A stretch of DNA of 64,000 nucleotides from a virus. Where the stretch lies: the IMG/VR virus record IMGVR_UViG_3300030098_003782, positions 4,001 to 68,000 of that record; one strand, 5' to 3'. Within the stretch, counting starts at the first letter, position 1. Every line of letters starts with the position of its first letter. The notes beneath the pieces are model-generated. The model ran no database searches, was not told the origin of the DNA, and was given only the letters and a program-made list of their open reading frames with translations. Shown piece after piece: positions 2,398 to 58,339 of this stretch. A program made the translations under genes and the position numbers.

Positions 2398-3999
2398 TTA
2401 ACAATAATCACATCTATTTTTATTTAATTTTCTTACTCCTCCTTTTTTATATCTAGCTCCAAAACCAACACCAAAGTGTGGTTTACCTGTTTGAGGGTTA
2501 TATCCTGCAGATCCACTAATATTTAAAGGGCCCATAAGTCCTATCTGTCCAAATGCTCCTATATTAGTTAATTGTTTATTTGTTAAATCATAATTACCTT
2601 CAACGCCATATGAAAATTGGGGTCTACTACTTCCTCCTTTATTACCAAAAAATCCTCCCCAACCCGGTCGTCCTGCAAAATGATCTCCTGAATGAGCTAG
2701 TCTACCAGTAAGATTGTGAGTACCTTTTCCTTTAGTTGATAATGCGGGTGTTTTATAATTATATCCTACATCTAAATGTACTGGATTCCAATTCTTATCA
2801 TTAAGAAAACTCCAAAAACTACCTGGATCATTATACGGATTAAGTAAATGAGGTAAATTTGTTCTAAGATAACCCCCTATGTTAGCATGTACATCAGGAT
2901 CTTGATATGTACCTATTCTATTATCTACAACTTGTTGAAGATTATGATCCCATCCTGGTCCAAGATTTTGTGGTTGTCCCATAAATCCTTTACTAAAATT
3001 AAGTCCTCCTTTAAGTCCTAATCTAAATGGACTACCTATTGCATTTCCACACCCTTGACCTGATGATGTATCACATTCAAAATTAAGAGAATAGTTCATT
3101 AAATTATTTTTTACAGGATCAGGAGCTACTATATTAGTTGTTAATGGATCAGTATTAGGTCCTCCCTTTTGATATTTTCTTCTTAACCCACCCTTTTTAC
3201 TTATAGTTGCTTGTCCTCCAAAATCATCTGTTACTTGAAAAGGATCTAATTGGGTAGGATTAGATTGTTGAGCAACATTATTCATAAGTTCTACAATATC
3301 ATCATCTGAAAAATAATTAAATAATCTTTGTCCAATCCCTTCTGTTCCTTTTGCTTTTTGTAAATCTTCTAATGTAAATGGAGTAAACTCATCTCCAGTT
3401 GATTGAAACAAACCATCTCTTTCTAATTCATATCTTAATTGTATTAGATCTGCTCTTGTCTCTTGTGGTTTAGCGTCATGATGACTATAACTAATCATAT
3501 CATTATTTAACATTATATTTTTTGACGTAATATAATCTGATACATTTTCATCTAATGTCATTTGATTGTGATCAACATGTCCTAATTCATGAGCTAAAAT
3601 GCTATCGTGAGTTAAGTTTGTACCAAATTTTTTTGGAATATAACTTAATTCTGTCTCTGCATCATCCATATAAAGAATATTTTCTTTTTTATTAAAATGA
3701 GAACCTACATCTGATGCAATAGTACTATTAAATACTATATTAGGATTAGACATAAAATTTTTAGAAAGTTGATCTGCATACATTGGTTGAGCACCAACCT
3801 GATATCCCAGTCCACCATAATCTGCATGCAAAGAATTTGGTTTACCTGCAATATTTTTAGTTTTATCTAGTAGGTGATTATAATGACCACTACTAAGATA
3901 ATTACTATACCAATCTGTAACCCCAGAATAATCTGTTTCTGATACACCAGCAGTTTGATACATCCTAGGTCTTCTTTTATTTAATTTTTTCGTTTTCAT
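2398..3999 (-). CDS. Modular virion/cargo protein: zincin-like metalloprotease domain plus Gly/aromatic beta-rich domain
   Basis: HELGH at 3577-3591 with a downstream E (ETRADLIQLR); linkers KKGGLRRKYQKGG and RYKKGG; C-terminal alternating beta strands. Confidence 0.6.
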   Translation of the reverse strand: MKTKKLNKRRPRMYQTAGVSETDYSGVTDWYSNYLSSGHYNHLLDKTKNIAGKPNSLHADYGGLGYQVGAQPMYADQLSKNFMSNPNIVFNSTIASDVGSHFNKKENILYMDDAETELSYIPKKFGTNLTHDSILAHELGHVDHNQMTLDENVSDYITSKNIMLNNDMISYSHHDAKPQETRADLIQLRYELERDGLFQSTGDEFTPFTLEDLQKAKGTEGIGQRLFNYFSDDDIVELMNNVAQQSNPTQLDPFQVTDDFGGQATISKKGGLRRKYQKGGPNTDPLTTNIVAPDPVKNNLMNYSLNFECDTSSGQGCGNAIGSPFRLGLKGGLNFSKGFMGQPQNLGPGWDHNLQQVVDNRIGTYQDPDVHANIGGYLRTNLPHLLNPYNDPGSFWSFLNDKNWNPVHLDVGYNYKTPALSTKGKGTHNLTGRLAHSGDHFAGRPGWGGFFGNKGGSSRPQFSYGVEGNYDLTNKQLTNIGAFGQIGLMGPLNISGSAGYNPQTGKPHFGVGFGARYKKGGVRKLNKNRCDYC

Positions 4000-6788
4000 T
4001 ATCTAAGCCATTGTATTCTATAAGGATTCCATTCTACGTTATATGGTATTGGATTCCAATTTTCATCAAGATGCCCATAATTCCTACTAATATCTATTTG
4101 TGAATAAGGCTCTTTAGAATATCTTTTGATTAATCCACGTTCAGAACTGTTTGGTCCATAATGAGTATGATATTCAGGATCCCAATAGCTTTTATAATTT
4201 GATCGATCTGGCATTGCTCTTTCTTCTATTGTTCTATATAATCTAGATGGTACTTGTGTGATTTGGGACCACTTAGTTTTTACATTGGGATTAATATGTG
4301 CTAATTCTGCTATTAAATTATTCATATACAGTTGTTGTTTAAATCTATGTTTTATATCAGTTGGCCACGACATATTTTCTAAATTAGACCTATCACTTTC
4401 ACTTAATACTCCAAATTTAGGTATATGAATATTTCCACCTGATAGAACTTTATTTTCTAAGATATTGAATGGTTTAGATAACATTGGATACATTAAATTC
4501 TTTAGATATCCCATTTTAGATAAAACATTTGGGACAGCATGAGGTCTAAAATGTCCCTCTTCATTTGTTGGTAAATTCTTATGATTTGAATAATTATGTA
4601 TGTTCCCAACTCTAGATCCTTTTATCATGTTTAAAGCATCTTTCCAATGTAAAAATCCTTTTGACATATCGCTAAGTATATAAGGTGCATATTGTTGAAA
4701 ATTACCATCGTTTGAATATATATCATATACTTGTTTTTCGTTATCACTTAATTTATCATATGATTCTTTTGATAATGCAGATATTTCTATTTCAGGGATT
4801 AAATTCTCATATTTAGATTTTTTTTCTCCACCGTCTTTATGTTTATATGTACCATATTTACTTACTGTTGAATAAGGTTGCTTAAGAGATTGTTTAAGTA
4901 ATGCACGTTCACTACTATTTGGTCCGTAATGAGTATGGTACTCATGATCAAAATAGCTCTGGTAGTTTGAGTCATCTGGACTTTCTCCTTCTCTTATACT
5001 TCTTGATAATCTAGATAAAGGAGTTGTTAATTCAGACCATTTAGTTTTAGCTTCAGGATCAATATGTGCTAATTCCGCAAATAAAGTCCGCATATACTCA
5101 GGTACCTGCCTTTCGTATTCTTTGTCCCTCCTATTCCAAAACTCCTCTTCACTTATTGGGTAACGATCAGGATATTGATAATCCTCGTAGCTTTTTTTAA
5201 AACGTTGTGGAAGGTTAGGTATAGCAATATCTCCGGTTGGAAGGGTTTTTCTAAATACGTCATCCACAGTTCCTAATAATCCTGGTTTTAACGATTTTAA
5301 TCCAGGATACTCCCAGAATGGGGTCAACTTATTAGCGAGCGATGATTGAGCATGAGCTCTAAAATGTCCGTGTTCATCCATTTTCCATTTGTCACCGCTA
5401 GCTAAAGGTTTATTATATATATTTCCAACTCCAGATTTATCTACCATATTTATAGCATCTTTCCAATGTATATGCCCTTCTGTCCTATCACTTAATTGAA
5501 ACGGCATATATTGTTTAAAATCTTTAGAAGGAAGTGTATATGTATCATAAACTTGTTTTTGTGCATCACTTAATTTATTGTATGATTTATCTGACAGTGC
5601 AGATATCTCTACTTCAGGTATGGGGTTTCCACCATCTTCCATTTTTCTTAATCCACCTGTTTTTTTCTTTCTATTAAACAGTGGTATATTTAAACCAACT
5701 TGAAAACCAGGTTTTTTAGTAGCCAGATTATAATTATATTCTCCAGTTACTGGTCCAAGCCTCCCACTAATACCTACATGTTGTCCTGGTCTTAATGAAT
5801 GTTTAGTTCCCGCTTCATAAAACCCACTTAAATTCCATGGTATTATAGGAGCTGAATAACACATTCCTCCAAAACATCCTGCTTTACCTGGTCTACCAAC
5901 ACCTAAACTAAGTCTTGCAGATGCGTCTAATCCTTTAGGAAGTTTAATATTAGGCCAATTAATACCACCACTTGATTCAGTTGCAGGGACTTCAGTAGGA
6001 GGATCAACATTACCTGTACTAGGATCAAATATTCTAGCTGCAGTTGTTGTTGAAGGATATGATGTTGTAGGAGCTTTAAATCCATGTCCTAATTCTCCTT
6101 GAAATGATCCCATCCATCTAGTATCATAATCCCTCATATTATTAATTTTCCACTGAGGAGTTCCAAACCTATAATCCATATTAGCTCCAGTAAATATATT
6201 TCTATCATCTCCCCAACCTCTTGTTCCACGAATAGCTCCAATATCTAAATTGGGGGTAGAAAATCTATAGGTAGGAGAAAGAGATGCATTAATACCAGTG
6301 TTTCCACCCAAAACTTGGGATTTAAGACCAAATCCAGATGATCCTCCATATTGATATTTTCTGAATCCACCTTTTTGATATCCTGAAGGAGATTCTATTA
6401 TAGTTCCTTCATAAGGTCCAGTTGGTAAATCTTGTATTCCAGGAGGAACACCTTTATAACTTTCTACTAAATGACCTTGTTTATCTATCTTTTGAATATC
6501 TATTGGAGCTTTCATACCAACCGTATTAAAAGATGCTCCGGGTTGTACATCAGGGAAAGCCATAGATGCTTCAGTATTTCCTCTAGCATGTTCTTCTCTT
6601 AATCCTATTTCTTGTTCTTCTGGAGTATTAGCAACTTTCATTTCTTGTTCTTGTTGCTGTTTTTGCTCATATTCAGATATAAGATCTATACCTTGATCTG
6701 CAGCTTTAAACACATCAATTATACTGCCTGGAAAATTAGACAGTTTAATACGGTCTAATAAATCTCTTCTAGTCTGATTTGTTGGCAT
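3999..6788 (-). CDS. Modular virion/cargo protein with a beta-rich module and a tandemly duplicated ~250-aa domain
   Basis: Linkers YQKGGFRKYQYGG, KKTGGLRKMEDGG and HKDGG; two copies of IPE(V/I)EISALS...AELAHI...EYHTHYGPNSSER. Confidence 0.6.
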   Translation of the reverse strand: MPTNQTRRDLLDRIKLSNFPGSIIDVFKAADQGIDLISEYEQKQQQEQEMKVANTPEEQEIGLREEHARGNTEASMAFPDVQPGASFNTVGMKAPIDIQKIDKQGHLVESYKGVPPGIQDLPTGPYEGTIIESPSGYQKGGFRKYQYGGSSGFGLKSQVLGGNTGINASLSPTYRFSTPNLDIGAIRGTRGWGDDRNIFTGANMDYRFGTPQWKINNMRDYDTRWMGSFQGELGHGFKAPTTSYPSTTTAARIFDPSTGNVDPPTEVPATESSGGINWPNIKLPKGLDASARLSLGVGRPGKAGCFGGMCYSAPIIPWNLSGFYEAGTKHSLRPGQHVGISGRLGPVTGEYNYNLATKKPGFQVGLNIPLFNRKKKTGGLRKMEDGGNPIPEVEISALSDKSYNKLSDAQKQVYDTYTLPSKDFKQYMPFQLSDRTEGHIHWKDAINMVDKSGVGNIYNKPLASGDKWKMDEHGHFRAHAQSSLANKLTPFWEYPGLKSLKPGLLGTVDDVFRKTLPTGDIAIPNLPQRFKKSYEDYQYPDRYPISEEEFWNRRDKEYERQVPEYMRTLFAELAHIDPEAKTKWSELTTPLSRLSRSIREGESPDDSNYQSYFDHEYHTHYGPNSSERALLKQSLKQPYSTVSKYGTYKHKDGGEKKSKYENLIPEIEISALSKESYDKLSDNEKQVYDIYSNDGNFQQYAPYILSDMSKGFLHWKDALNMIKGSRVGNIHNYSNHKNLPTNEEGHFRPHAVPNVLSKMGYLKNLMYPMLSKPFNILENKVLSGGNIHIPKFGVLSESDRSNLENMSWPTDIKHRFKQQLYMNNLIAELAHINPNVKTKWSQITQVPSRLYRTIEERAMPDRSNYKSYWDPEYHTHYGPNSSERGLIKRYSKEPYSQIDISRNYGHLDENWNPIPYNVEWNPYRIQWLR
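4080..5631 (-). repeat. Intragenic diverged tandem duplication (copy 1 ~4850-5631, copy 2 ~4080-4805)
   Basis: Collinear shared peptides: IPEVEISALSDKSYNKLSD/IPEIEISALSKESYDKLSD, HWKDAINM/HWKDALNM, EHGHFRAHA/EEGHFRPHA, AELAHIDP/AELAHINP, EYHTHYGPNSSER in both. Confidence 0.9.
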
Positions 6789-9192
6789 TCTTTGCTTTTG
6801 CTTGTTTATCTGCTATTTCTTTTTTTGCTCTAATATCTCTATTTGCTGTATCTCTTTTAATATATTCTGCTTCTCTTTTTGTACTATTACTTTCTATTTC
6901 ACTGTCTCTTTTCATTATATCTGCCTCTCTAGAAAGCTGATTAGATTCTCTATCTATTTCTTCTTTTGCTTGATCTCCTCTAGATTTTTCAATTAACTCT
7001 TGTTCTCTTAATGCTAATTCTTTTTCTTTTATTTCAAAATCTCTAACCATTTTTTCTAACTGTAAAGACTCAACTCCGGTAGATGCCTGTTGTTTAGACT
7101 CAGCGTTTATTAAAGCTATTTCAATATCTTTTTGACGATCTTTTTCGTTTTCAATATTTTCTGCTTCCAATTCCATTTGTTTCATCTGAGTCTGATGTTG
7201 TAATGCTTGTTGTTGTGCTTGTTGCTGTGCCTGTTCTAATTCAGCTGCAGCTTTATCAGCTTTTTTAAGATTATCTTTAATTTGTGTAAAGCTGTCTGAA
7301 TCTAACATTTCTGCAATATCTCCCGGTTTAGCACCATTCTGCATCATAGCCTGAGTAAGTCCTCTAATGTTTTGTAACTTCTCAGCATCTTTACCTGCAT
7401 CAGAAACAAATATACCATAATTAGTTTCCATGTGTTGCATAGTATCAATATTTAAAAAGTCAGTGGTACCGTCTGGCATTACATATGTAGACTTTTTACC
7501 TGTTAACCATGCTTCTTTAGAATAGTCTAATAAAGCTTGAAAATCTCTTTGTTCCATTCTTTCAAATTTTCTAAACAGATCTTCAGTAATATGTGAGGAC
7601 TGTAATATAGCCTGTTGTGAAGATGCTTTACCTTCATAAGCTCCTATCTCTCCTTGTCTTTGTCTACTTACTCCTGAAATCTTTTCCCATTCCTGTAAAA
7701 TACTTTCTAGTAAAACAACATATTGTTGAATAGTTTTAATAGACATATCCATTACAGATTGATGTTGAGGATTTAATTGAATACCTTCTTTATTATAATC
7801 TACCCAAGCAATACCTGTACCTTCTACATAATACATAAATTTATCCATGTCCCATTTTTTAGGGATCATATTAATATCAAATTGTGCAATAATATCTTTA
7901 GATCTAGCAATAGCAAGTTCTAATCTATATTTATAAATATTATAATTTAGTTGATAAGGTATCCCTAATTTAACTAATGAAATATTTTTAGCGTTTACAT
8001 CTGAATATCTTCTACCATTAATAGGTAATTTACATCTAGAAGGGTTATCAAGAGAAAGTCTTTGATTTGCAATTGGATTTATATTAATATAAAAACGACC
8101 ATCTATCCTTGTTCCCTCCCAAACTTCATTAATCCATTTCCATTCTATTTTAGCACCAGCTTCTTTTAATTCTGCAGGTAATCTAAATCCATCTGGAACT
8201 TCTTGTTCTTCTATAGTGCCTGTCATTGGATCCATATAAGCTAAAAATCCTATTCTTTTTCTAGATTTCCAATAAACATTTACAACTTCTACTAATCTAT
8301 TTCTAAAAGAATTTGCATCTTTATTAGAAGAGTGCGCATATAAAAATGATACATCACTTTCAGAATGTCTAGGTTCTTCAAGTTCTAATACTTGTTGTTC
8401 TGATAAAGAATCATAATAATGATCTATTACAGTTGATGCGTGTACATATTTTCTAACTATAGCCCAATCTCCATCTTCAACAAATTCTAAATCAGGATCA
8501 AGATCATAATCTACATCAATAGGGTTAAGTATTTCATAAAAAGGTTCACCATTTCTTACTCCTCTATGAGTATAAACTTCTCCTGCTACTAAATAATGGA
8601 ACCATGCTTTTTGTATCTTATCATAAACTTCTTGATCTTGAAAAATAAAATTTAAAGCTTTTTGTCCCAGTAAAGCTCTTTGATCAACATAACTACTTTC
8701 AAACATTTCTGCTATATGTTGAGGCATAGGATTTTCTTGTTGTTGTTGTTCTGGACTCATGCCCATATCCTGCCCCTGATTTTGAACTGCTTGCATAAAA
8801 TGCAATTGTAAATTCATAAAAATTGCTTGAGATTTAGCTTGTTCTTTTATAGTTGTAGTATCTGCATTTTGTACTGTAACAGTATAATTGAGAGGCCTCT
8901 TAGATTTTTCCCCTAGAAGAAGATCAATTATGGGTTTGATAATGGGGTAGTTACGCATTTCAGAAGGAAAGTTTTTACGGGATTTACCGTAAGGTTTTAA
9001 TACGTACTTGTAATCAGCCTCATCAATTATACCATTATAGTAATCATATAGTATTTTAAGTTCATCTTTTCTTTGTGAATAGCCTGAACCAGAATCAGAG
9101 AGATCTATGAATGCTTCAACGCATTGTTCTCCCCATTTTTTTGTTTTTTTGCTTATAGGCAGTTTTTGCCTAGGTATTTTATCATATCCCAT
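6769..9192 (-). CDS. Portal protein
   Basis: 807 aa with NYPIIKPIIDLLLGE, WINEVWEG and ISGVSRQRQG motifs and a coiled-coil C-terminus; downstream of TerL. Confidence 0.9.
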   Translation of the reverse strand: MGYDKIPRQKLPISKKTKKWGEQCVEAFIDLSDSGSGYSQRKDELKILYDYYNGIIDEADYKYVLKPYGKSRKNFPSEMRNYPIIKPIIDLLLGEKSKRPLNYTVTVQNADTTTIKEQAKSQAIFMNLQLHFMQAVQNQGQDMGMSPEQQQQENPMPQHIAEMFESSYVDQRALLGQKALNFIFQDQEVYDKIQKAWFHYLVAGEVYTHRGVRNGEPFYEILNPIDVDYDLDPDLEFVEDGDWAIVRKYVHASTVIDHYYDSLSEQQVLELEEPRHSESDVSFLYAHSSNKDANSFRNRLVEVVNVYWKSRKRIGFLAYMDPMTGTIEEQEVPDGFRLPAELKEAGAKIEWKWINEVWEGTRIDGRFYININPIANQRLSLDNPSRCKLPINGRRYSDVNAKNISLVKLGIPYQLNYNIYKYRLELAIARSKDIIAQFDINMIPKKWDMDKFMYYVEGTGIAWVDYNKEGIQLNPQHQSVMDMSIKTIQQYVVLLESILQEWEKISGVSRQRQGEIGAYEGKASSQQAILQSSHITEDLFRKFERMEQRDFQALLDYSKEAWLTGKKSTYVMPDGTTDFLNIDTMQHMETNYGIFVSDAGKDAEKLQNIRGLTQAMMQNGAKPGDIAEMLDSDSFTQIKDNLKKADKAAAELEQAQQQAQQQALQHQTQMKQMELEAENIENEKDRQKDIEIALINAESKQQASTGVESLQLEKMVRDFEIKEKELALREQELIEKSRGDQAKEEIDRESNQLSREADIMKRDSEIESNSTKREAEYIKRDTANRDIRAKKEIADKQAKAKNANKSD

Positions 9193-9267: not shown

Positions 9268-9606
9268 TCATTCAAGATAATTACAAATATCATATAAACC
9301 GTATTTTAATGTTAGCTCTTCTCCCTGTTCTATTTTTCTTAATGTTTTTAATCTTCTATAATCATCATCTCCTTCATCTTCTATTAGTTCACAATTAGGT
9401 TCTTCTGAATGATTTATAAAACCTCCTAATGGTGTCCTTATATAATTATGTTGAAAATTTGGATCATAAACATGAGTAATACCTATAACCACCTCTCCCG
9501 GAATATCTTCTTTTGCGAGGATCCCTGCTCCATGAATATTTGATGGTCCTATTGTTAAGTACTCTGGAAGAGGGTTATAAGGTTCTTTATCTTTACATTT
9601 ATCCAT
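9268..9606 (-). CDS. SET-domain protein (putative lysine methyltransferase)
   Basis: SNIHGAGILAKEDI, GGFINHSEEPNC and IEQGEELTLKY are the three SET signature motifs. ATG at 9606 follows the TerL stop, so it is preferred over 9627. Confidence 0.88.
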   Translation of the reverse strand: MDKCKDKEPYNPLPEYLTIGPSNIHGAGILAKEDIPGEVVIGITHVYDPNFQHNYIRTPLGGFINHSEEPNCELIEDEGDDDYRRLKTLRKIEQGEELTLKYGLYDICNYLE

Positions 9607-9607
9607 A

Positions 9608-29312: not shown

Positions 29313-29318
29313 ACAAAA

Positions 29319-38130: not shown

Positions 38131-38131
38131 A

Positions 38132-46501: not shown

Positions 46502-46504
46502 ATA

Positions 46505-50061: not shown

Positions 50062-52746
50062 TTAATTTTTGAGATATCTTCTATATCTTAAAATATTCTC
50101 AGTTAATATTGCTAATCCTTTTGATTTATCATGAACTTCACCATCAATAATAACAGTATTATTTTCATAGTCAAATGTTACATTAGAGTATTCACTTGGA
50201 CTATATTGATCTAGCCTTTGTTGTATTCCAGAAATCCATTTTTTATTAACTTCAAATTCTGCACTTCCTAAGTATTCATTTAAAGCTGGTATACTAATTT
50301 GAGACGCATCAGCTAAGAAAGCTATAACATTACCTTCATCTTCACCACTTGTTATTTTAACTGGTATATAAAGTTGAGCTTCTCCCCCAACTTCCATATT
50401 GGTTATTCCTATTTGACTTGTTACAACTTCATATTCTCCTATATTATGTTCTTGAATACTTTTTGCACTAAATCCTGCATCAGTTTTACCATTAGCAGAT
50501 TGTAACATAAGTTGTGATGGAACAACGCCATCTTTAAAAAAGTTTTTTAGTGCTGCATTAACCTGTCCTGATGTTTCATATGTTGAACCAAAATTAGTCA
50601 TAATCATTGTTTCCATAGAAACAGGAGAATCATCAAATCTTCCTGCGAATGCATTTTCTGCTGTAGTTTTTTCGTTCTCTAACATTTCGTCAATAGCTTT
50701 TACAAAATCACCTGCTGCATCAGCCATTTGATTATTCCACATCTGTGCGTTCATAACTGTTTGAGCATCTAGTTTTTTATTTGGATCCACCTTTCTGAGT
50801 AAAGCGCCTGTTACTAGATTTGTTAAATAGAAATTATCCATACTTCCTACAGGAGATACTGCAGTTGGGCTACCTATATTCATTCCTTTAAGATCTAATA
50901 AACTAGTTATTGGTGTATCTGGATTCCATTCATTATACATATCTACTATATCTTGTCCTGTAAGTGAAAATTCTTGATTTGAGTGAAACCACGGATTTGC
51001 AGCAGTAAGTAATTGAAGTCCTCCACCTAAAAACCAATCATCTCCTCCAACAGCCATAAAATCTGTATTATTAATTTGCTCTCCTCTAAGTTCTACATAT
51101 TCATTATAACTTAAATTTGTATGATCTCCTACAGAAAGTTCAGGAAGTTTTATATTAATTTTTTGATTTGTTACATCATATAACTGCATATCACTAGCCA
51201 TACCATTTAATACGTCATGATATTTATTAATATCTAAACTATTAACATCAGCATAAGTATTTAAGTGTGTTTGACCAACTTCTCTTTTAAAGCGCATTTC
51301 TTCTGTATAATCTAAATACTCTGAATAAATACGATCTGAATATTTTTGATCACTTTCTCCATCTAGCCTTTCTGGAGCATTACCTGGTTTCCAGTCTAAA
51401 TATTCTAATATAGGAGCATTAGCATTTTGATATGCAGTTTTATATGCATTAAGATGCTTTTGAACTAATCCTATAACTTGAATATCAGATAAATTATCAA
51501 TATCTAATCCTTCTCCTTTTGTAGGAAGTTCATTACCAAGATTATCATATTTAATATCATCTGGATGAACATTTTCAGTCCATTGAATTTGCTTAAGATA
51601 ATTTCTTAAATTCTTTACATAATCACCTCTTTTTTCAACTGCATCATCATAGTCTAGAGATAAAGGTTTAACATGTACAACTTCACTATAAGAAATATCA
51701 TCTGTATTAAATTGAGAATTAATGTTCTTTAATTTAGTTTTTTCTTTCTCTTTCCACATTTCGTCATAACTTATCTGTCTTCCAGATGCTACTGTTCTCT
51801 TGCCTCCATAAGTACCTACAGCTAATTGAGTTTCTCTTGCTACAGCATTTTTATATAACAATTCTTGTAAAGCTTTTAAAGGCCCTATCTCGTCTACTCT
51901 AGGCATTATTTCATCTTCCTTAATATCTCCATTTTGAATTAGTTGATTAATAGAATGTAATGCAAGAGGTATACCCTCGCTATCTGTTTGAGCTAAATTA
52001 TATGTATTTAAATCTATCTCCTGAGCTAAAGAAGCTTGAACATCTGGATCAGACATAACATCATTAACAACCATTTGTATTAGTTCAGTAGGAATTTCAG
52101 ATGTTTTACTTGTAGTTCTAACCCAATATTTAGGTTCTCCTTTATCTCCTCTAGTAGTAGTAATTTCAAAATCTTCATTATAAGGAATATCAGTACCTAA
52201 ATTTTGACGAATAAAAGGTTTAACCGCTTTCATTCTTTCTACTACTTTTTCTGTAATATCTACATCATGAAAAAAGTTTCTACCATTATAAATAGAATTG
52301 TCTTGAAGTACACCATTTTCATCATACTGAATACCTTGATATAAATAATCAGATTGAGCTAATCTACCTTGATATGTATTTGCATTTATATCACCCTTAT
52401 CATAAGCTTTTTGAAGTCTTTCCATATAGTCTTGTCTGTTCTTAACACTTTGTGCTATAGGACTATATTCATTAGTAAATGCTCTAGCTCCTTTATTTAT
52501 GGCTATACCTAAAGTTTCATAATCTCCACGATTAGCCCAATTTTCTAACATTCCAGTATATTTTTGAGATAACTGATTTTTTAAGTGAGCATCTTTTTCT
52601 AAAGATTGCATTTGACCTACAGAATTAGAAAACTCATCAGCTGCAGAATATCCTTCTATGTATTGATTTCTTGCTAATTTAGCTAATTCTACTGTACCTA
52701 AATCTCTATAACTTGAGATTGGTTTTGGTATATTTATTCTTGCCAT
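50062..52746 (-). CDS. Putative internal virion protein
   Basis: 894-aa ORF in the cargo gene cluster. Confidence 0.55.
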   Translation of the reverse strand: MARINIPKPISSYRDLGTVELAKLARNQYIEGYSAADEFSNSVGQMQSLEKDAHLKNQLSQKYTGMLENWANRGDYETLGIAINKGARAFTNEYSPIAQSVKNRQDYMERLQKAYDKGDINANTYQGRLAQSDYLYQGIQYDENGVLQDNSIYNGRNFFHDVDITEKVVERMKAVKPFIRQNLGTDIPYNEDFEITTTRGDKGEPKYWVRTTSKTSEIPTELIQMVVNDVMSDPDVQASLAQEIDLNTYNLAQTDSEGIPLALHSINQLIQNGDIKEDEIMPRVDEIGPLKALQELLYKNAVARETQLAVGTYGGKRTVASGRQISYDEMWKEKEKTKLKNINSQFNTDDISYSEVVHVKPLSLDYDDAVEKRGDYVKNLRNYLKQIQWTENVHPDDIKYDNLGNELPTKGEGLDIDNLSDIQVIGLVQKHLNAYKTAYQNANAPILEYLDWKPGNAPERLDGESDQKYSDRIYSEYLDYTEEMRFKREVGQTHLNTYADVNSLDINKYHDVLNGMASDMQLYDVTNQKINIKLPELSVGDHTNLSYNEYVELRGEQINNTDFMAVGGDDWFLGGGLQLLTAANPWFHSNQEFSLTGQDIVDMYNEWNPDTPITSLLDLKGMNIGSPTAVSPVGSMDNFYLTNLVTGALLRKVDPNKKLDAQTVMNAQMWNNQMADAAGDFVKAIDEMLENEKTTAENAFAGRFDDSPVSMETMIMTNFGSTYETSGQVNAALKNFFKDGVVPSQLMLQSANGKTDAGFSAKSIQEHNIGEYEVVTSQIGITNMEVGGEAQLYIPVKITSGEDEGNVIAFLADASQISIPALNEYLGSAEFEVNKKWISGIQQRLDQYSPSEYSNVTFDYENNTVIIDGEVHDKSKGLAILTENILRYRRYLKN

Positions 52747-52759
52747 ATTTTATTTATTA

Positions 52760-55700
52760 TTAAAAGTATTTGGTTTGTCCCATTCCGTACATATTAGCAT
52801 AATTAGCTATATCTTCATTTGTACAATTTTCACAGAATAGTCTTCCATCCTGATGATATAAAGTCCCACCTAAGTGTCTTCTTAATAACATACGATTTGT
52901 AGTATTATCTATACTATATCCTTGAGCTTTTAAGGTATCTCCTTTATATCCTAAAACATCTCTAGTTAATTGTCCTATACCCTGAGCTGCAGAGAATATT
53001 CCTGAATACTTCATATATTCTTGATCATCTCTCCATTTATTTAAAGCTGCTGTATTAAAAGCTTGTACATCTTGTAGCCTCTTAGCTTCTTGTTGCTGTA
53101 ATTGCATATTTTGTGTCATCGCTTCTTGTTCTTGTCTTACATTAAAAAGCTCTGTTTGATTTTCAATTGCAACATTTTGATTTTCTATATTAGTGTTATA
53201 ATCTTTTTCTAACTTTGCAATCTCCATATCACCTTTATGCTTCTTGCCCCAGGTTGCCATTCTATTTATTAAATTGGCAGGACCTCCTCCAGACTGATCT
53301 ATAAAAGTATTCATAGCATTAAAATCAGCATCGTTTTTAGCTCTTTGCATATTTAAATTTATGTGATTTAATTTTTGAGCTCTTACTCTTTTTGGGACTA
53401 TAGGAGATGTAACTCCAGATTCAAAAGGAAGTGTTTCTGGTTTTGGTTGAGTATGAAGTAATGAATATGCTGCTGGTGCTAAATTGGCTAAAGCTCCCAT
53501 ACCAATAGCTACATCAGCTCCTCTATCGCCAGTTATACTTCTTTGCCACCATGGAAGTTGTTCTATTTCTTCTTTATTTACTAATGAATTATTAACAGTA
53601 GATACACCTGTACTACCATCTTCAAGTAAAGGACCAATAAATTGTTGATTAGGCCTTTGTATAAAATCAGGAATTCCATCATTATCTTCATCTGTTAAAG
53701 GAATTGGTTCTATATAAGATCCGGTAGGAACAAACCCTTCATCTATTCCTCCCATCAATTGATCCCATGCGGCTTGATGCTGTGGCCCCCATTGTGTAGT
53801 ATTATCCCAATTATAAGGTTTATATTTTCCACTTAACGGATCATATTGTGATCTATGCCATCTTTCATAATCTGCTCTAAATTCATCAAAACTAGAATAT
53901 CCTCTAGCATTTAATTCTTCTTCTGTAGGTTGCACATAAGTACCATAATTTTTCATAGCAGAGTATGAAGAATCAACATCACCTTCTGAGTATTTAAATT
54001 CAGGAGGATTTATATATCCTTTATCAGATAAATAGTTTTCAGCATCTATTGAAAAATAATCTCCTATTTGATTCCCATCTTCAAAATTAGTTGTAACATC
54101 ACCTTCTCGTGTAAATCCAGTAATTAAATTATAATCATTATCAACTGATTTATTATTATTAAATTTTCCAGCTATAAAATTTGGACCATAGTTTTTAACT
54201 CCTTCTGTTAAATTTATTTGACCATTATTATCAGATGTAAATTGTCCTGTATGAGTATATCCCCAATCAACAAATTCTTCTCCAGAATCCTCTGCTGCAT
54301 CTATATCGTTATAAGTAAATTCACCTGTTCCATGAGGCTTTCCATCTTTAAACTCTCCTTGGTACATTCCAATAATATAATCTGTACCTGCTGCAGGAAC
54401 AAACTCATGATCTAAAATCATTTCTCCAAGAGGGTCTTTTTCATCAGCATTTGGTGTCCAATATGTATACATAACTCCGCTACCATCTTGACAATTGCCA
54501 CTTATACATACAGTATATCCGTCACCCATTTCAGCATTAAATCCATAAGCTCTATCATAATCTTTTCTAAGCCCTATTGTTTCTTTTGGACCCTCTTCTT
54601 TTTCTTCTTTTTCTGGTTTTATTTCTTTATATTTACCATCTACAACTTGATAAAGATTTCCATTTTTTTCACTTTGATAATACCTGCCCTCTAAAGCATT
54701 TTTTATCTTTGGAGTACCTATAATTGGATTTTCTAAATTACTACCTAAACCTTCTAATATAGCATTATATTGAGCCATTGCTTCATTCCAACTTATACCT
54801 GCAGTTGCTGGATTAACCTTACCTTCACTTTTTTTGTCAGGATCTAAAGGATAATCAAATCTTTTTGGAATACTTGGATTTGCTATACCTCCATTTTCAT
54901 ACTTCATAAATCCTCCATGCTTAGCTTCTTGTACTTTATTAGGACTTCTACCAGCTGCTTTTTCTTGCATTCTTGCTAAGTAATTAATCTGCTCTTGATC
55001 TCCACCAGAAGCTAAAATTTGTTTATGCATATCAGCAAAAGACATACCTCCTTTCTTTAAATGTGAAGAAAAGAAATAATCTTTTGCTCCGCCATTTTTC
55101 ATAACTACTTTATCCATAGTTTCTCCATCTTCTACTTCAGTCATAGGATCTACTAAAATACCTCCTTGATCGTGAGTTTGACCAGTAAATTCTACTGCGT
55201 CTGATCCTGGTATAGTAGTCATCATACCTCCAGGTAGTTGTTGCATTTTTTGATATAAACTAGGATTAGACATATACATTCCTCCAGATGCCTGTTTTTG
55301 TCTAAGACCTCCATTTTGAAACCCAAATAAATATTCTGTAATACCCATATCAGGTAAATTAAACCATCCTCTTTTTCCTACTGAACTATAAGGTCCCTTT
55401 TTTGACTTTTTAGTTTTTTCAGTTTTATCTTCAGATTCAGGAATTTGAAAAGTATAAGAATCTTCAAATGACGGGCCTATCATCACAGATCTATTTGGAT
55501 TTTCTTTATAATTAAATTCAGATACAGCTTGATTATAATAGTCAGGAGTACCATGAACATCTGAAGATGTATTATAATAATCAGACCAATATTGACCAAT
55601 ACCTTCAACTGATGTTGGTGCTGCTGTAGGATCAAGCATATAATATAACCTAGCCGCTAAAACATTAGCTAACGGATTAGATCTAACCTGCTCTAAAGTC

Positions 55701-56020
55701 ATATTATTAAAGTCTATTCCAAATTTGTCTTTAACTTGTTGTAATTTTTTCTTATTTTTAGGATGAGATTTAACGTCTTTAATGGCGTTATATGCAGGTG
55801 GCATTATTTGCATATAGTTTGTACCTGCAGAAGGATTCCATCCTCCTGTAGATTCTGCTATAGCTGTATAAGTTAATAAATCTTTACCTCCATATTCATC
55901 AGAAACTTTTTGAATAGCATCAGCTAATTCAGGTTTTAAATCTCTATATGTAGTACTTTTTAATGGAATACCTTGAAAGTCATCCCAATATCCAGCATTT
56001 TGATATTTCTTTCTTAACAT
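52760..56020 (-). CDS. Modular virion protein: lytic-transglycosylase-like, THDQGG domain, MORN repeats, coiled coil
   Basis: AIAESTGG...YMQIMP...ANVLAARLYY; GQTHDQGG..EVEDGE; YQGEFKDGKPHGTGEFTY; DEDNDGIPD; several xxGG linkers. Confidence 0.65.
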   Translation of the reverse strand: MLRKKYQNAGYWDDFQGIPLKSTTYRDLKPELADAIQKVSDEYGGKDLLTYTAIAESTGGWNPSAGTNYMQIMPPAYNAIKDVKSHPKNKKKLQQVKDKFGIDFNNMTLEQVRSNPLANVLAARLYYMLDPTAAPTSVEGIGQYWSDYYNTSSDVHGTPDYYNQAVSEFNYKENPNRSVMIGPSFEDSYTFQIPESEDKTEKTKKSKKGPYSSVGKRGWFNLPDMGITEYLFGFQNGGLRQKQASGGMYMSNPSLYQKMQQLPGGMMTTIPGSDAVEFTGQTHDQGGILVDPMTEVEDGETMDKVVMKNGGAKDYFFSSHLKKGGMSFADMHKQILASGGDQEQINYLARMQEKAAGRSPNKVQEAKHGGFMKYENGGIANPSIPKRFDYPLDPDKKSEGKVNPATAGISWNEAMAQYNAILEGLGSNLENPIIGTPKIKNALEGRYYQSEKNGNLYQVVDGKYKEIKPEKEEKEEGPKETIGLRKDYDRAYGFNAEMGDGYTVCISGNCQDGSGVMYTYWTPNADEKDPLGEMILDHEFVPAAGTDYIIGMYQGEFKDGKPHGTGEFTYNDIDAAEDSGEEFVDWGYTHTGQFTSDNNGQINLTEGVKNYGPNFIAGKFNNNKSVDNDYNLITGFTREGDVTTNFEDGNQIGDYFSIDAENYLSDKGYINPPEFKYSEGDVDSSYSAMKNYGTYVQPTEEELNARGYSSFDEFRADYERWHRSQYDPLSGKYKPYNWDNTTQWGPQHQAAWDQLMGGIDEGFVPTGSYIEPIPLTDEDNDGIPDFIQRPNQQFIGPLLEDGSTGVSTVNNSLVNKEEIEQLPWWQRSITGDRGADVAIGMGALANLAPAAYSLLHTQPKPETLPFESGVTSPIVPKRVRAQKLNHINLNMQRAKNDADFNAMNTFIDQSGGGPANLINRMATWGKKHKGDMEIAKLEKDYNTNIENQNVAIENQTELFNVRQEQEAMTQNMQLQQQEAKRLQDVQAFNTAALNKWRDDQEYMKYSGIFSAAQGIGQLTRDVLGYKGDTLKAQGYSIDNTTNRMLLRRHLGGTLYHQDGRLFCENCTNEDIANYANMYGMGQTKYF

Positions 56021-56038: not shown

Positions 56039-58339
56039 TTAATATCCGTATCTTGGAACTCCTCTCATAAATCCTCCACCTCTATACATTACATTTCTAC
56101 CAAGATTTTGTCCAGATATTGTTTTTTGTGCTAAGTTACCAGCTGCAATATTAGCTAATTGAGAACCATATAAACCTCCCACTCTTTCATTTAAATCATA
56201 TATAGCTTCATTTCTATTAGCGGCCGCTTCTGATTCATAATCTCTCTGAGCTTGTGCAGCCTTTCTAGTACCAAATGCTTGTTTTCCATATCCCCACAAT
56301 GCTCCAAGTCCAGCTCCAATTGCTGTACCAGGTCCTGGAAATAAAGATCCAATTGTAGCTCCAGTTCCAGCAGATTGTAATACAGATCCTGTATATTCTC
56401 CAAAATTAGATTTAGTTGGATCATCATCGTCAGCTAATGCACTAACTCCCATTCCTGCTAATGAAGCAATAGTACCTAATCCTGCTCCTGATTGTGCAAA
56501 TGATTTTAATCCTGCACCAATAGCGCTACCCCCAACTTCAGACCCTATAGCAGCAGCATCAGCAGCTGTAGAAGCCGCAGTAGGTGCCGCATATGGTACT
56601 CCTTTAAAAGCCATTTGTGATCCCTTAGCAGTTAATTCAGCACCTTTAGCAGCTGCTTCTGTTGCAGCCCCTGCTACTCCTGGAGCTAATGCTCCTCCAG
56701 CTTTGCTTAACTCAGCACCTTTAGCCATTAAATTAGCTGCTCTAACAGTTTTATAAGCATCTACTCCACCAGCTATAGCTGAACCAAGTGTTGATGCTTC
56801 ATGTTCAGGAAATAATGTACTACCTATTCCTCTAGCCAAAGTGTTTGCAGTTCCTTCTACTTGTGAAGCAGCAGTTCCTGCCATTGCTTCTGCTTGCATA
56901 GCTTCTTGTTCCGCTAGTGCTTCGTCTTGTATTCTCTGTTGTTCAGTTGACTGTCTTAATCCAGTTGCTTCTTGTGACAGTGATTGTCCTACAGTTCCTA
57001 ATTGTTGTAGTCTTTGTGCTTGTATATTAGGATCTGTTTCTTCTCCAACAATTGTAGATGTATATCCTAATTGAGGAGCAGTACCTTGTCCTGCACCCGA
57101 TAATGTATTGTCATACATTCCTCCTGTCTCTCTTCTAAATGGACCTTCTGGACCCTTTTGAGTTCTTCCACTAAGAGGTATATTAACACCCCATCCTCCA
57201 GTCCACCCTGCAGCATCTTTTCCTACATTCATTGAAAATGGACCATAATTTACGCTTCCACCATAACTTGTTCCTGGAGAAAAAGATTTTTCAGTTCCGT
57301 ATCCAATATTTCCTCTAATTCCCCAATTTGAATTTTGAGGGTAATATCCTAATCCTGCCTGTACATGACCGTATCCTCCTTTATTTAGACCAGTTTCTAA
57401 TGTATTAAATACATCTCCCGTTTTAGTATTATAATAATTATTACTCCCTTTTAACAAGGATCCTATTTCTCCTTCGATTCCTCCTACGAGACTACCACTT
57501 TTATTTAAAGGATGTTGATAAGCGTAATTAAGTCCTAGAGTTGTTCTGTTTTTATCCAAAGCTGTTCCTTCATTTACTCCAGAACCTGCTTTATCACGTA
57601 TATTACCTCTATACATCATACTACTAGTAAGACTTGGGCTTATACTAAAACTACCTCTACTACCTTCAAGCCCAGATAATTCATAATCAGTATCTGGACC
57701 TGTCCTTAAGAATGCTGGACTGTAATTAGCATTTAGAGTAGTACCTTGTCCTATACCAAAATTACCACTAAGACTAGGATTAAAAAAATCTGCTTGTCTA
57801 TTTCTAATTGCTATAGGCTCATCTAACCAGTTTTGATATCTATTAAAATGTCGTGATCCAGGCTCATAGCCAAATGGATTATTTTTGTTTAAATCTATTA
57901 CTTTAGGATCAGGTTTAAATCCTGCATTTTGATATTTTTTAGTACCCCCATATCTGTATTGCATAGGTCTAATACCTCCTGTTTTTAAAGATCCTCTAGG
58001 AACAGTTCCCTTTACTGGAGGCAAACCTTTAACTCTTTGACCTTTTTTGTACCCATCTGTACCGTCACTTATATAGTAAGTTCCTATTTGAACTTGTTGC
58101 ATAGATCCAGAAGGTGTTGATCCAGATTGATCTGGAACAAGATGTATAATTTTTCCTATTCTAGTATTTTCATCTACCTCTTGAAGTTTAACTTCTCCAT
58201 CAATTCCACTAATAAATTCTTGTAAATCTGGGGTATTAGCAGAATTTAGAATCATGTCCCACAGACTCTTTGTTTTTCCACCATTTTGATATAATTTTGT
58301 TTTCATTTTATTTATATGTTTTACGTACTGCTGCTTCAC
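56039..58339 (-). CDS. Modular virion/ejection protein with beta-rich module and Gly-zipper membrane segment
   Basis: Linkers YQNGG, KTGG, YRYGG, KYQNAG, RETGG; AGTGATIGSLFPGPGTAIGAGLGALWG. Confidence 0.6.
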   Translation of the reverse strand: MKQQYVKHINKMKTKLYQNGGKTKSLWDMILNSANTPDLQEFISGIDGEVKLQEVDENTRIGKIIHLVPDQSGSTPSGSMQQVQIGTYYISDGTDGYKKGQRVKGLPPVKGTVPRGSLKTGGIRPMQYRYGGTKKYQNAGFKPDPKVIDLNKNNPFGYEPGSRHFNRYQNWLDEPIAIRNRQADFFNPSLSGNFGIGQGTTLNANYSPAFLRTGPDTDYELSGLEGSRGSFSISPSLTSSMMYRGNIRDKAGSGVNEGTALDKNRTTLGLNYAYQHPLNKSGSLVGGIEGEIGSLLKGSNNYYNTKTGDVFNTLETGLNKGGYGHVQAGLGYYPQNSNWGIRGNIGYGTEKSFSPGTSYGGSVNYGPFSMNVGKDAAGWTGGWGVNIPLSGRTQKGPEGPFRRETGGMYDNTLSGAGQGTAPQLGYTSTIVGEETDPNIQAQRLQQLGTVGQSLSQEATGLRQSTEQQRIQDEALAEQEAMQAEAMAGTAASQVEGTANTLARGIGSTLFPEHEASTLGSAIAGGVDAYKTVRAANLMAKGAELSKAGGALAPGVAGAATEAAAKGAELTAKGSQMAFKGVPYAAPTAASTAADAAAIGSEVGGSAIGAGLKSFAQSGAGLGTIASLAGMGVSALADDDDPTKSNFGEYTGSVLQSAGTGATIGSLFPGPGTAIGAGLGALWGYGKQAFGTRKAAQAQRDYESEAAANRNEAIYDLNERVGGLYGSQLANIAAGNLAQKTISGQNLGRNVMYRGGGFMRGVPRYGY

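Follow-up and report, generated by a model that had tools for sequence, protein, structure and literature searches.

The window, i.e., the whole stretch of 64,000 nucleotides analyzed here, belongs to a crassvirus, a marine crAss-like phage, and its virion genes include matches to Crass_capsid, crAss_MUZ, Ring_1, and portal. Four late open reading frames, designated ORFs A to D, carry repeated copies of a short basic-aromatic-Gly-Gly motif, and every copy listed in a preliminary description of the sequence was located in both the translations and the DNA. The interval from the portal gene to the MCP gene contains ORF B, ORF A, and an acidic scaffold-like ORF; ORFs D and C come after the muzzle gene, as gp45 and gp46 come after gp44 in crAss001. 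The genes and motif copies are as follows:

1206..2297, minus strand: gene for a scaffold-like protein (363 aa, acidic, Gln-rich, Cys-free), between the cargo genes and the MCP gene
2398..3999, minus strand: ORF A (533 aa)
2437..2451, minus strand: YKKGG near the C-terminus of ORF A
3160..3198, minus strand: doublet KKGGLRRKYQKGG in ORF A, including YQKGG (3160-3174)
3946..3960, minus strand: YQTAG at the N-terminus of ORF A
3999..6788, minus strand: ORF B (929 aa)
5628..5666, minus strand: doublet KKTGGLRKMEDGG in ORF B, directly behind the beta module
6342..6380, minus strand: doublet YQKGGFRKYQYGG at the end of the ORF B N-domain, with YQKGG (6366-6380) and YQYGG (6342-6356)
6769..9192, minus strand: portal gene, immediately upstream of ORF B
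52760..56020, minus strand: ORF C (1086 aa)
54887..54925, minus strand: doublet KHGGFMKYENGG in ORF C
55280..55321, minus strand: doublet FQNGGLRQKQASGG in ORF C
55991..56005, minus strand: YQNAG at the N-terminus of ORF C
56039..58339, minus strand: ORF D (766 aa as listed)
56072..56086, minus strand: YRGGG in the conserved C-terminal NVMYxxGG..MPRYGY element of ORF D
57119..57133, minus strand: RETGG junction in ORF D, with GG-MY invariant in the D family
57920..57988, minus strand: triple LKTGG..YRYGG.KKYQNAG in ORF D
58277..58291, minus strand: YQNGG at the N-terminus of ORF D
58308..63671, minus strand: crassvirus muzzle gene (crAss_MUZ), immediately upstream of ORF D

Each of the four ORFs consists of several modules of disparate type, and the identities of several modules are leads only. 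ORF A, which pairs an HExxH module with a beta module, opens with a basic leader and YQTAG (residues 1-18), followed by a HELGH-bearing zincin-like/LPD23-like module (approximately 20-262), the doublet KKGGLRRKYQKGG (268-280), the beta module (292-515), and YKKGG with a basic Cys tail, VRKLNKNRCDYC (517-533). The earlier label 'zincin' is based on the HELGH motif and on a lead from the ESM Atlas that points to LPD23 (0.90-0.91), a 'large polyvalent protein-associated domain'; Pfam gave nothing significant for the module (the best match, to M48, was weak at E 0.14) and confirmed neither LPD23 nor MuF in the window. ORF B comprises a conserved DUF192-like N-domain (1-136) closing with YQKGGFRKYQYGG (137-149), a beta module (150-371), KKTGGLRKMEDGG (375-387), and a duplicated domain, already noted in the preliminary description and visible in the sequence, with HKDGG (650-654) between its two copies. 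Against DUF192 (PF02643), ORF B scored E 2e-4 and 21.9 bits, below the 27-bit cut-off, and PF02643 is precomputed on 4 of 12 ORF A homologues carrying an ORF B-type N-domain. GG140/141 is invariant in an alignment of 24 N-domain sequences, in which 20 of the 23 others are 59-76% identical to the window sequence up to GG140/141 and unrelated beyond it; the three divergent sequences are only 36-42% identical to it.

ORF C, combining a lysozyme-like lead with MORN, begins with an MLRKKYQNAG leader, followed by the lysozyme/SLT-like lead (approximately 10-230), FQNGGLRQKQASGG (234-247), MKNGG, LKKGG, and KHGGFMKYENGG (367-378), a MORN repeat (553-572), and a C-terminal region weakly resembling crAss001 gp45 708-792. 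Pfam confirmed the MORN assignment (25.2 bits vs. a cut-off of 22.5), and the former label 'transglycosylase' reduces to an ESM Atlas lead (SLT, 0.85), its sole basis. ORF D pairs a beta module with Gly-zipper helices: an MKTKLYQNGG leader is followed by a small beta domain, the triple LKTGG/YRYGG/KKYQNAG (118-140), the beta module (174-390), an RRETGG-MY junction (402-409), a long helical Ala/Gly-rich region with a weak Gly-zipper match, and the C-terminal NVMYRGGGFMRGVPRYGY. Because its orthologues begin MxxKxYQxxG, the listed GTG start probably lies 11 codons too early, M12 being the likelier start. In the D family, Y6, Q7, and G10 (the Y, the Q, and the last G of YQNGG) are invariant in eight sequences, as is the C-terminal NVMYxxGG, at an overall identity of only 43-54%.

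The beta-rich module described earlier proved to be a real repeated family, with 11 instances in the window and related loci. The family member P0027 (E 2.5e-28) matched the outer-membrane beta-barrel family PF13505 (OMP_b-brl) at 28.9 bits (cut-off 28.7); Pfam scans of the 22 further members examined returned nothing. In the AF2 model of ORF A, residues 302-515 form 11 strands of 9-13 residues (pLDDT 42-82 as 10-residue block means); Foldseek gave no match for this module at E <= 1e-3, and its weak top matches were mostly TOM40, VDAC, PelB, OmpU, BamA, and a designed transmembrane barrel. ORF D 238-344 matched TIGR03519 (PorP/SprF) at E 0.002, far below the family cut-off. In the low-confidence models of ORF A (mean pLDDT 48.5) and ORF D (mean pLDDT 41.1), every motif copy, including the ORF A sites at 1-21, 245-306, and 517-533, lies in coil between structured blocks.

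The motif has the consensus (K/R)-(Y/F)-(Q/K)-x-(G/A)-G-hydrophobic-(K/R)-K and is frequently doubled, with an eight-residue period. YQx[GA]G occurs seven times in ORFs A-D (3,314 aa) and is absent from the remaining 47 called ORFs (16,974 aa); shuffling within proteins gave a mean of 0.19, and none of 2000 shuffles reached seven. The broader [YFM][QEKR]x[GA]G is found 14 times vs. two elsewhere (shuffle mean 1.53, maximum 9, 0/2000 reaching 14), and the originally proposed pattern, [KR][KYMF]xxGG, six times vs. two (shuffle mean 0.72, 0/2000). Enrichment over background is thus borne out for three motif definitions, and a scan of the called ORFs agreed that the replication genes lack the motif. 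Since bare GG is not enriched beyond composition (47 in ORFs A-D, shuffle mean 44.1, 665/2000 reaching 47), the signal lies in the context around GG rather than in glycine richness.

Across 83 related viral loci, the motif count was zero in 74 portals, 66 terminases, and 41 scaffold-like proteins, and the density in the four cargo families was 2.2-3.1 per 1000 aa. Among 132 distinct instances (56 proteins), the N-terminus is no more than 25 aa away in 11 and the C-terminus in 26, and 95 are internal. Typical sites are the N-terminus behind a basic leader, a position approximately 10-15 aa ahead of the C-terminus, and internal joints, in support of the earlier proposal that copies sit at termini and between unrelated modules. 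GG/AG is invariant across instances and the residue after it tolerant; the aromatic, Gln/Lys, and basic positions are conserved, conservation being symmetric, spanning roughly 10 residues, and accompanied by basic flanks; doublets are most often spaced 8 aa apart (14 cases). Of 40 portal-adjacent proteins, 21 end in GG plus a tail of 3-20 aa with at least three K/R; Cys occurs in 13 of these 21 tails (e.g., KKCKYGCW), and a KKLxKxRR element is common to N-leaders such as MKKKKLTKSRRKIYQTGG and C-tails. In G001, a complete but more distant relative, three cargo ORFs (1,901 aa) contain six of 13 loose hits and the remaining 25,854 aa contain seven; the strict motif is rarer there, and variants include YTAGG and YNKGG. 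The data support a peptide signal that is under selection and restricted to late proteins of the virion or cargo type.

Comparison of orthologues revealed module exchange at the linker: of 34 breakpoints in homology, 19 are no more than 10 aa away from a motif copy (8% expected), and inserts in P0031, L081, and P0036 are flanked on both sides by extra motif copies. ORF A 272-524 corresponds to residues 1-250 of the ORF C orthologue in L081, the beta module of ORF D is missing in L082, and each of 12 ORF A homologues covers only 41-49% of ORF A. The four ORFs are strings of exchangeable modules whose joints and N-terminal basic leaders are set off by the motif, as are many C-terminal basic tails, often Cys-bearing; relatives swap, insert, or delete modules at these joints.

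In crAss001, gp45 and gp46 (cargo proteins C1 and C2) were detected in virions, and pieces of gp45 lie on both sides of the portal, according to the main text of Bayfield et al., 2023 (PMC10172136). These proteins resemble ORFs C and D in gene place directly behind the muzzle, and gp45 is enriched in aromatic-GG motifs, but the motif is looser, [YF]x(0-2)GG (nine copies in gp45, shuffle mean 2.48, 4/2000 reaching nine), and sequence similarity to ORF C is marginal (ORF C 934-1018 vs. gp45 708-792, pairwise E 0.003). ORF D gave nothing better than E 3.7 against gp45, and phmmer found no match among PDB chains. Gp45 starts with a basic leader followed by FDTGG, and aromatic-GG motifs bracket its cryo-EM-resolved segments 214-245 and 425-552 (segments as given in the main text of PMC10172136). 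ORFs A-D are probably packed in the virion and injected into the host: synteny with gp45/gp46 points to packaging of ORFs C and D, and that of ORFs A and B, which have no crAss001 counterpart at that place, is suggested solely by where their genes lie, after the portal gene and before the scaffold-like one. The strict motif is missing from the giant cargo ORFs of RNA-polymerase-like type (33598-50053) and from ORF 50062-52746, all of which are expected to be packaged; the motif is therefore not a general packaging signal, which weakens the earlier reading of it as a universal tag.

The closest known concept is that of polyvalent proteins, in line with the Atlas lead of the ORF A HExxH module. 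Iyer et al., 2017 (PMC5512222) portray them as multidomain proteins that combine dissimilar activities and presumably enter the host together with the DNA after being packaged in the capsid; domain mosaicism is extensive, and zincin-like peptidase and lysozyme domains are among the modules. They differ from ORFs A-D in that the main text of that paper describes no conserved junction or end motif, basic leaders, Cys tails, or barrel-like modules, and the words 'linker', 'glycine', and 'crAss' are absent from it. Nor was a conserved joint motif found in the searched open-access papers and preprints; in ORFs A-D, swappable cargo building blocks are delimited, at their ends and inner joints, by a short basic-aromatic-Gly-Gly peptide. 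Viral Gly-Gly/Ala-Gly maturation sites (adenovirus AVP, ASFV pS273R, poxvirus I7L) and SUMO/Ulp sites have GG or AG at P2-P1 and a hydrophobic residue a few positions upstream; adenovirus/ASFV/poxvirus-type precursors lose short basic terminal peptides, and SUMO tails end in ..YQEQTGG. In contrast, the hydrophobic position of the window motif is shifted by one, and no clan CE protease was found in the related records (0/5). With the T4 internal-protein capsid targeting sequence and the portal-linked cargo of MuF/SPP1 gp7 type, a short N-terminal tag or a conserved domain next to the portal brings variable cargo into the head. Likewise, the B-type gene directly follows the portal gene, but no T4-type prohead protease was found (PF03420, 0/5), the N-domain is DUF192-like and not MuF, and the motif recurs internally and at C-termini. 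C39 peptidase-ABC leaders (LSxxELxxIxGG) also place Gly-Gly ahead of the mature part; the window leaders lack that pattern and are basic and 5-18 aa long, and the motif occurs internally and at C-ends as well.

We propose, with a probability of roughly 0.4, that selection maintains the motif as a tag at the junctions and ends of modular, likely virion-packed and ejected cargo, serving as handle and hinge. The functional unit would be a short basic/aromatic peptide insulated by Gly-Gly hinges, with an internal form, GG-hydrophobic-R-K-Y-Q-x-GG, and an end form, leader-YQxGG or GG-basic tail. Sticky handles would bring cargo into the procapsid by way of the strongly acidic scaffold-like protein (14% Glu, 9% Asp), a possible partner of the basic tags, and later by way of DNA; thanks to the hinges, the modules would remain like beads on a string and could pass portal and tail singly. 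The cargo set could diversify quickly because any module flanked by such joints would be accepted. No cutting at the joints would be needed, and cutting would stay compatible. Counted against the handle-and-hinge proposal were the resemblance of the invariant small GG/AG and of the short leaders and tails to protease sites and propeptides, the lack of the strict motif in the RNA-polymerase-like giants and ORF 50062-52746, the purely positional case for packaging of ORFs A and B, the rarity of the strict motif in G001, and the low confidence of both AlphaFold models.

A serious, though tentative, alternative is that a protease recognizes the motif and cuts behind GG or AG, which would make ORFs A-D polyproteins; basic leaders, tails, and eight-residue spacers would then be removed to give separate effectors (barrel, peptidase, lysozyme, membrane helices) by a cargo-borne HExxH module, an unrecognized phage protease, or a host protease. 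The invariant GG/AG with its tolerant following residue suits such a site, the distance of copies from the protein ends (5-18 aa at the N-terminus, 10-16 aa at the C-terminus) is propeptide-like, and, provided that both flanking GGs were cut, fused and split genes would end up with identical mature modules. Cleavage after xGG/AG is known from the proteases of adenovirus, ASFV, and poxvirus and from SUMO proteases, and pVIc of adenovirus is a C-terminal peptide that is basic and contains Cys. On the other hand, five related records (three of them at least 95% complete) contained neither Peptidase_C48 (PF02902), C5 (PF00770), or C39 (PF03412) nor the prohead proteases S78 (PF04586) and S77 (PF03420) (0/5 for each); Pfam detected no Gly-Gly-specific cysteine protease (C48/C5/C39) in the window, and Pfam and PHROGs no protease among the structural genes. 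Judging from sequence, HExxH modules inside the cargo proteins would be the only protease candidates, and their concentration in portal-to-scaffold intervals (10/38, vs. three in 214,285 aa elsewhere) favors processing, but 28 of the 38 intervals lack HExxH, and the symmetric conservation, basic flanks, and eight-residue period are more typical of a binding or structural unit. Zincin-mediated processing is proposed for polyvalent injected proteins in PMC5512222, and cutting would account for the gp45 pieces on both portal sides (PMC10172136, main text). However, the crAss001 virion gel bands of 15-300 kDa given in the methods of PMC6235969, taken without the assignment of bands to proteins, show no sign of fragmentation, nor does peptide coverage across gp45 in PMC10172136, whose main text has no word beginning 'cleav', 'proteoly', or 'protease'. 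A specific variant, adenovirus/ASFV-like maturation by a GG/AG-specific endopeptidase that would cleave the YQxGG joints of polyvalent precursors within the DNA-filled head, seems unlikely; the enzyme may be a cargo-borne zincin, an unrecognized phage enzyme, or a host Ulp-like enzyme. If true, such cutting would strip the basic leader, spacer, and tail peptides used as scaffold/DNA handles, free, among others, ready-made outer-membrane beta-barrel modules building a channel through the Bacteroidota envelope, and likewise explain the gp45 pieces.

That Gly- and Lys-rich late proteins of an AT-rich genome yield such strings unaided is a practically negligible prospect and was rejected: ORFs A-D are indeed Gly-rich, and composition accounts for all of their GG, but the composition-preserving shuffles never matched the motif counts, the motif is family-limited in the 83 loci, and aligned positions keep it in dozens of relatives, as in the 24-sequence N-domain alignment. 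It is also quite improbable that the motif is a footprint of recombination at short shared linker DNA, merely tolerated as a flexible linker without other function. Its coincidence with homology breakpoints and insert borders, and the approximately 12-15 nt common to the copies (such as AAATATCAAAAxGGxGG), would fit that explanation. However, the linker DNA identity of 14 copies (0.521) did not exceed the expectation from peptide and codon usage (0.507 ± 0.010 in synonymous resampling, 44/500 reaching 0.521), and the earlier suggestion that similar linker DNA drives module shuffling gained no special support; selection acts on the peptide, not the DNA. Moreover, the motif is kept at termini, where nothing is joined, remains invariant where overall protein identity is 43-54%, and, unlike passive linkers, conserves its aromatic, Gln/Lys, and basic positions.

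The window comes from a crAss-like phage (Crassvirales) and its G+C content is approximately 30%. Its portal has 521 relatives in IMG/VR, which are uncultured viral contigs, and among the best 80 of these 521 the portal identity is 72–88%. Four modular cargo-type ORFs, designated A–D, are arranged as follows (the remainder of the tail module was taken from relatives' sequences):

2–1156, crassvirus major capsid protein (Pfam, E 7.6e-59)
1206–2297, minus strand, scaffold-like protein
2398–3999, minus strand, ORF A, 533 aa
3999–6788, minus strand, ORF B, 929 aa
6769–9192, P22-like portal (Pfam)
9608–11578, large terminase (PHROGs)
16–33 kb, plus strand, block of replication genes
33598–50053, three giant ORFs, where crassviruses carry their virion RNA-polymerase genes
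52760–56020, minus strand, ORF C, 1086 aa
56039–58339, minus strand, ORF D, 766 aa
58308–63671, crassvirus muzzle protein (Pfam, E 2.5e-59)
63671–63985, tail ring protein 1 (Pfam)
2455–3126 (in A), 5676–6341 (in B), and 57170–57820 (in D), minus strand, three paralogous beta modules

Between the terminase and portal genes, 9268–9627 (minus strand) encodes a small protein with a SET domain (Pfam, E 2.7e-10), and a weak Cpn10/GroES-like match at 14260–14523 (minus strand; E 2e-4) barely exceeds its cut-off (21.7 vs. 21.1 bits). In the replication block, 28140–30494 (plus strand) encodes a DUF2201 putative metallopeptidase and VWA-like protein, followed by an ATPase (phrog_1297); PHROGs assigns the former to an HNH endonuclease family, at odds with Pfam.

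The basic-aromatic-x-x-Gly-Gly peptide of ORFs A–D, for example YQx[GA]G (the motif), is a real and conserved motif, hitherto undescribed, that marks the joints and ends of modular crassvirus cargo proteins; full-text searches of open-access papers and preprints yielded nothing relevant on the motif strings or on cleavage of crAss-like or ejection proteins. Every copy reported in the preliminary description was found in the translations at matching DNA coordinates, and the pattern proposed there, [KR][KYMF]xxGG, is enriched (six in A–D vs. two elsewhere; none of 2000 shuffles attains six). YQx[GA]G occurs seven times in A–D (3,314 aa) vs. zero in the 47 other window ORFs (16,974 aa), with a within-protein shuffle mean of 0.19 and 0 of 2000 shuffles reaching seven, and [YFM][QEKR]x[GA]G occurs 14 times vs. 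two in the other 47 ORFs, again with 0 of 2000 shuffles reaching the observed count. Since GG alone is a composition effect in A–D (47 observed vs. a shuffle mean of 44.1) and the motif counts exceed the shuffles, it is the context of Gly-Gly that carries the signal.

Across the 83 related viral loci surveyed (833 ORFs, 243,521 aa), [YF][QKE]xGG has the counts listed below; all other window-conserved families have none.

Table. Copies of [YF][QKE]xGG in 83 related loci (family: copies; proteins; residues; copies per 1000 aa)
B-family: 54; 28; 18,037 aa; 2.99
C-family orthologues: 5; 2; 2,245 aa; 2.23
D-family orthologues: 4; 2; 1,272 aa; 3.14
A homologue: 2; 1; 781 aa; 2.56
Portals: 0; 74; 55,605 aa; 0
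Terminases: 0; 66; 39,364 aa; 0
Scaffold-like proteins: 0; 41; 14,844 aa; 0
Unassigned ORFs: 39; 262; 65,786 aa; 0.59

The 24 unassigned ORFs with this pattern include 15 versions of the variable portal-adjacent gene and five capsid proteins with a single FKVGGE each. The motif is also present in 44 of the 61 scanned proteins (P0002–P0062) fetched as homologues of A and of the beta module. Its consensus, derived from 132 distinct instances in 56 proteins, is K(-1) Y/F Q/K K/T/N G/A G followed by a hydrophobic residue, K/R, and K; 11 are N-terminal and 26 C-terminal (within 25 aa of the respective end), and 95 are internal. Doublets are most frequently spaced by eight residues (14 cases). In the more distant complete relative G001 (85,958 bases), loose motif hits number 13, six in three cargo ORFs (1,901 aa) and seven in the other 25,854 aa; the strict motif is rarer there and the variants IYTAGG, YNKGG, and LKTGG stand at equivalent positions, so the strict form depends on lineage. 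Upstream of the muzzle gene, relatives encode small tail-region proteins bearing the motif (L083:6288–7592, L081:8638–9096, L083:8620–9108), one with six copies (KKMMYKKAGK, KMKKGGK, etc.) and others with the motif at the C-terminus, so the tag may extend beyond the four families of the window.

Homology comparisons place the motif at module borders. The first 136 residues of B (N-domain) are 59–76% identical to the window's in 20 of 23 other aligned sequences, up to ..IIESPAAYQKGG, and 36–42% identical in the three divergent ones; GG140/141 is invariant in this alignment, and unrelated sequences follow it, with total protein lengths from 143 to 1,553 aa. A core motif is no more than 10 aa away from 19 of the 34 distinct internal BLAST homology breakpoints in A–D, vs. 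8% expected. Each of the 12 database homologues of A spans just 41–49% of it. Module swaps at the motif were observed: A 272–524 corresponds to the first 250 aa of the L081 ORF C orthologue. One 917-aa protein of L004 combines the N-domain with the beta modules of both A and B, and L082 carries D without its beta module. Invariant in the D family (eight sequences, 43–54% identity) are the leader residues Y6, Q7, and G10, the GG-MY junction, and, at the C-terminus, NVMYxxGG..MPRYGY; its additional modules in P0031, L081, and P0036 are flanked by extra motif copies. The listed GTG start of ORF D (56039–58339, minus strand) is probably wrong, as orthologues begin at a Met 11 codons downstream (MKTKLYQNGG), which places the motif at residues 6–10. 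The suggestion that similar linker DNA allows module shuffling gained no particular support: the DNA identity of the copies is 0.521, vs. 0.507 ± 0.010 in resampling by peptide and codon usage (44 of 500 resamplings reach 0.521). This identity is no higher than peptide and codon usage demand. Selection acts on the peptide; microhomology-driven shuffling, while possible, is not indicated.

At the N-termini of second-gene and post-muzzle proteins, a basic leader precedes the motif (MKTKKLNKRRPRMYQTAG, MKKKKLTKSRRKIYQTGG, MLRKKYQNAG, MNKKLYQTAG), and many of these proteins end in GG and a basic tail (..KKGGVRKLNKNRCDYC, ..KKGGVRKKLKKARRKLY, ..FKKGGLKKKCKYGCW). Of 40 distinct portal-adjacent proteins, 21 have such a tail under a strict definition, and in 13 of these the tail contains Cys. 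A KKLxKxRR element is common to leaders and tails, whose sequences resemble the two parts of a long joint, GG-V-RK-KLxKxRR-x-YQxGG, divided by gene fission. The Cys-bearing tail, GG-x-KKKCKYGCW (or CxYC / KVCW), is conserved behind unrelated modules in L012, L026, L029, L033, L040, L060, and other loci, with a window counterpart at 2401–2436 (minus strand); it could be a disulfide anchor, a metal anchor, or a packaging tag.

AlphaFold2 models of A (mean pLDDT 48.5, low confidence, 16-row alignment) and D (mean pLDDT 41.1), although weak, place the motif outside folded domains, in agreement with its earlier placement at domain borders. In A, the motif sites (1–21, 245–306, and 517–533) lie in unstructured low-pLDDT stretches, with a helical block (22–244) and eleven long strands (302–515) between them; in D, all five sites are in coil and separate a small beta domain, a beta meander (179–376), and long helices (426–739). 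A co-fold of the portal (807 aa) with B 1–150 scored 0.00 and carries no weight either way.

The beta module looks like an outer-membrane barrel. P0027, one of the fetched homologues, matches Pfam OMP_b-brl at 28.9 bits vs. a cut-off of 28.7, D 238–344 matches PorP/SprF weakly (E 0.002, the only hit in an NCBIfam scan of six proteins), and the weak Foldseek hits, none at E ≤ 1e-3, are mainly transmembrane barrels. The aromatic residue that closes its last strand is also the motif's own (..GVGFGARY-KKGG). The family is rare (52 cluster representatives at E ≤ 1e-3 among 1.84 billion proteins) and occupies varied positions in proteins of 118–1,706 aa. Searches of C, D (phmmer), and the beta-module profile against PDB sequences gave no meaningful match; in tblastn against GenBank phages, ORF A matched Cellulophaga phage tail proteins alone, in a 28% stretch, and no match was obtained for ORF D. 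The motif-flanked barrel-like modules suggest that an outer-membrane pore may be among the proteins this phage injects; no ejection protein is known to have been so described.

As for the other modules, the N-domain of B is DUF192-like, and ESM Atlas provided leads from the HELGH module of A to LPD23 and from the C N-terminus to SLT/lysozyme; Pfam, applied to six sub-regions, gave no significant match for zincin-like or lysozyme-like modules. Of 38 portal-to-scaffold intervals, 10 (L005, L013, L026, L028, L033, L036, L048, L058, L066, and L070) contain HExxH modules, vs. three HExxH in 214,285 aa elsewhere; the modules stand in at least four different contexts, e.g., HEVKHLLSPTG, HEIGHAGSPTG, HELGHTD, and HEVGHNIGG.

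In crAss001, the genes after the muzzle gene encode the cargo proteins gp45 (C1) and gp46 (C2), both detected in virions, and resolved segments of gp45 lie in the tail barrel (214–245) and on the capsid side of the portal (425–552) (PMC10172136); the main text of that paper contains no words starting with 'cleav', 'proteoly', or 'protease'. With regard to possible gp45 fragments in crAss001, the main text of PMC6235969 describes the virion gel bands by size alone (15–300 kDa). The gp45 protein, whose N-terminus is MAKKKIKRRGKMPPNIFDTGG, carries a looser version of the window's motif, [YF]x(0-2)GG, nine times vs. a shuffle mean of 2.48 (4 of 2000 shuffles reach nine), at 10.7 per 1000 aa vs. 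1.32 in 26 other crAss001 proteins, and motifs of this type flank both resolved segments (Y208-GG, F260..GGG, F426-GG, F559..GG). The C-terminus of p-crAssphage gp48, RLNVYRCGGHRR, resembles that of the D family. The nearest concept is that of polyvalent proteins of phages and conjugative elements, for which zincin-mediated processing has been proposed (PMC5512222); 'linker', 'glycine', and 'crAss' are absent from its main text. Motif-bearing cargo extends this polyvalent, injected-protein theme.

Two readings of the motif were weighed. We tentatively favor, with a probability of roughly 0.4, an uncleaved basic handle plus hinge: the basic peptide would be the handle and the Gly-Gly that insulates it the hinge, without cutting. 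Symmetry of the basic flanks and a period of eight residues are what a binding or structural unit would show. The same two features speak against a processing site at which cargo is cut at GG/AG, as had been proposed; in favor of processing are the invariance of GG/AG, the short leaders and tails, and the fact that fused and split versions of the genes are equivalent. Cleavage is further disfavored by the absence of protease families C48, C39, S78, C5, and S77 from all five related records searched, three of them 95–100% complete. Pfam and PHROGs detected no protease among the structural genes of the window, L026, and L081, and the only peptidase-like items found were the cargo-borne HExxH modules and the early-block DUF2201 metallopeptidase/VWA gene. 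We therefore regard cutting as a possible but somewhat doubtful reading and place the uncleaved handle and hinge slightly ahead of it; both may coexist. In a control search, Bacteroides thetaiotaomicron was positive for Peptidase_C48 (Ulp1-like), a lead indicating that a host enzyme of a Gly-Gly-cutting clan exists in the phylum infected by crassviruses.

Crassvirales rank among the most abundant phages of the gut and sea, and the cargo protein that they load and eject amounts to megadaltons. In uncultured crassviruses, the joint motif offers a sequence rule for spotting cargo or ejection proteins and the places where their modules meet. The predicted GG sites make cargo processing checkable by N-terminomics, and the motif might serve as a portable tag with which foreign proteins are loaded into phage heads.

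ORF 1206–2297 (minus strand), directly before the capsid gene, encodes a Cys-free, Gln-rich protein of 363 aa (14% Glu, 9% Asp, 1% His), and its acidic, Gln-rich, Cys-free, His-poor composition rules it out as a protease. The passages of the crassvirus literature examined contained no assignment of a scaffolding protein. The ORF is conserved at 54–75% identity in 41 loci, shows a weak likeness to crAss001 gp31 (E 0.004), and, by its sequence, is probably the scaffolding protein.
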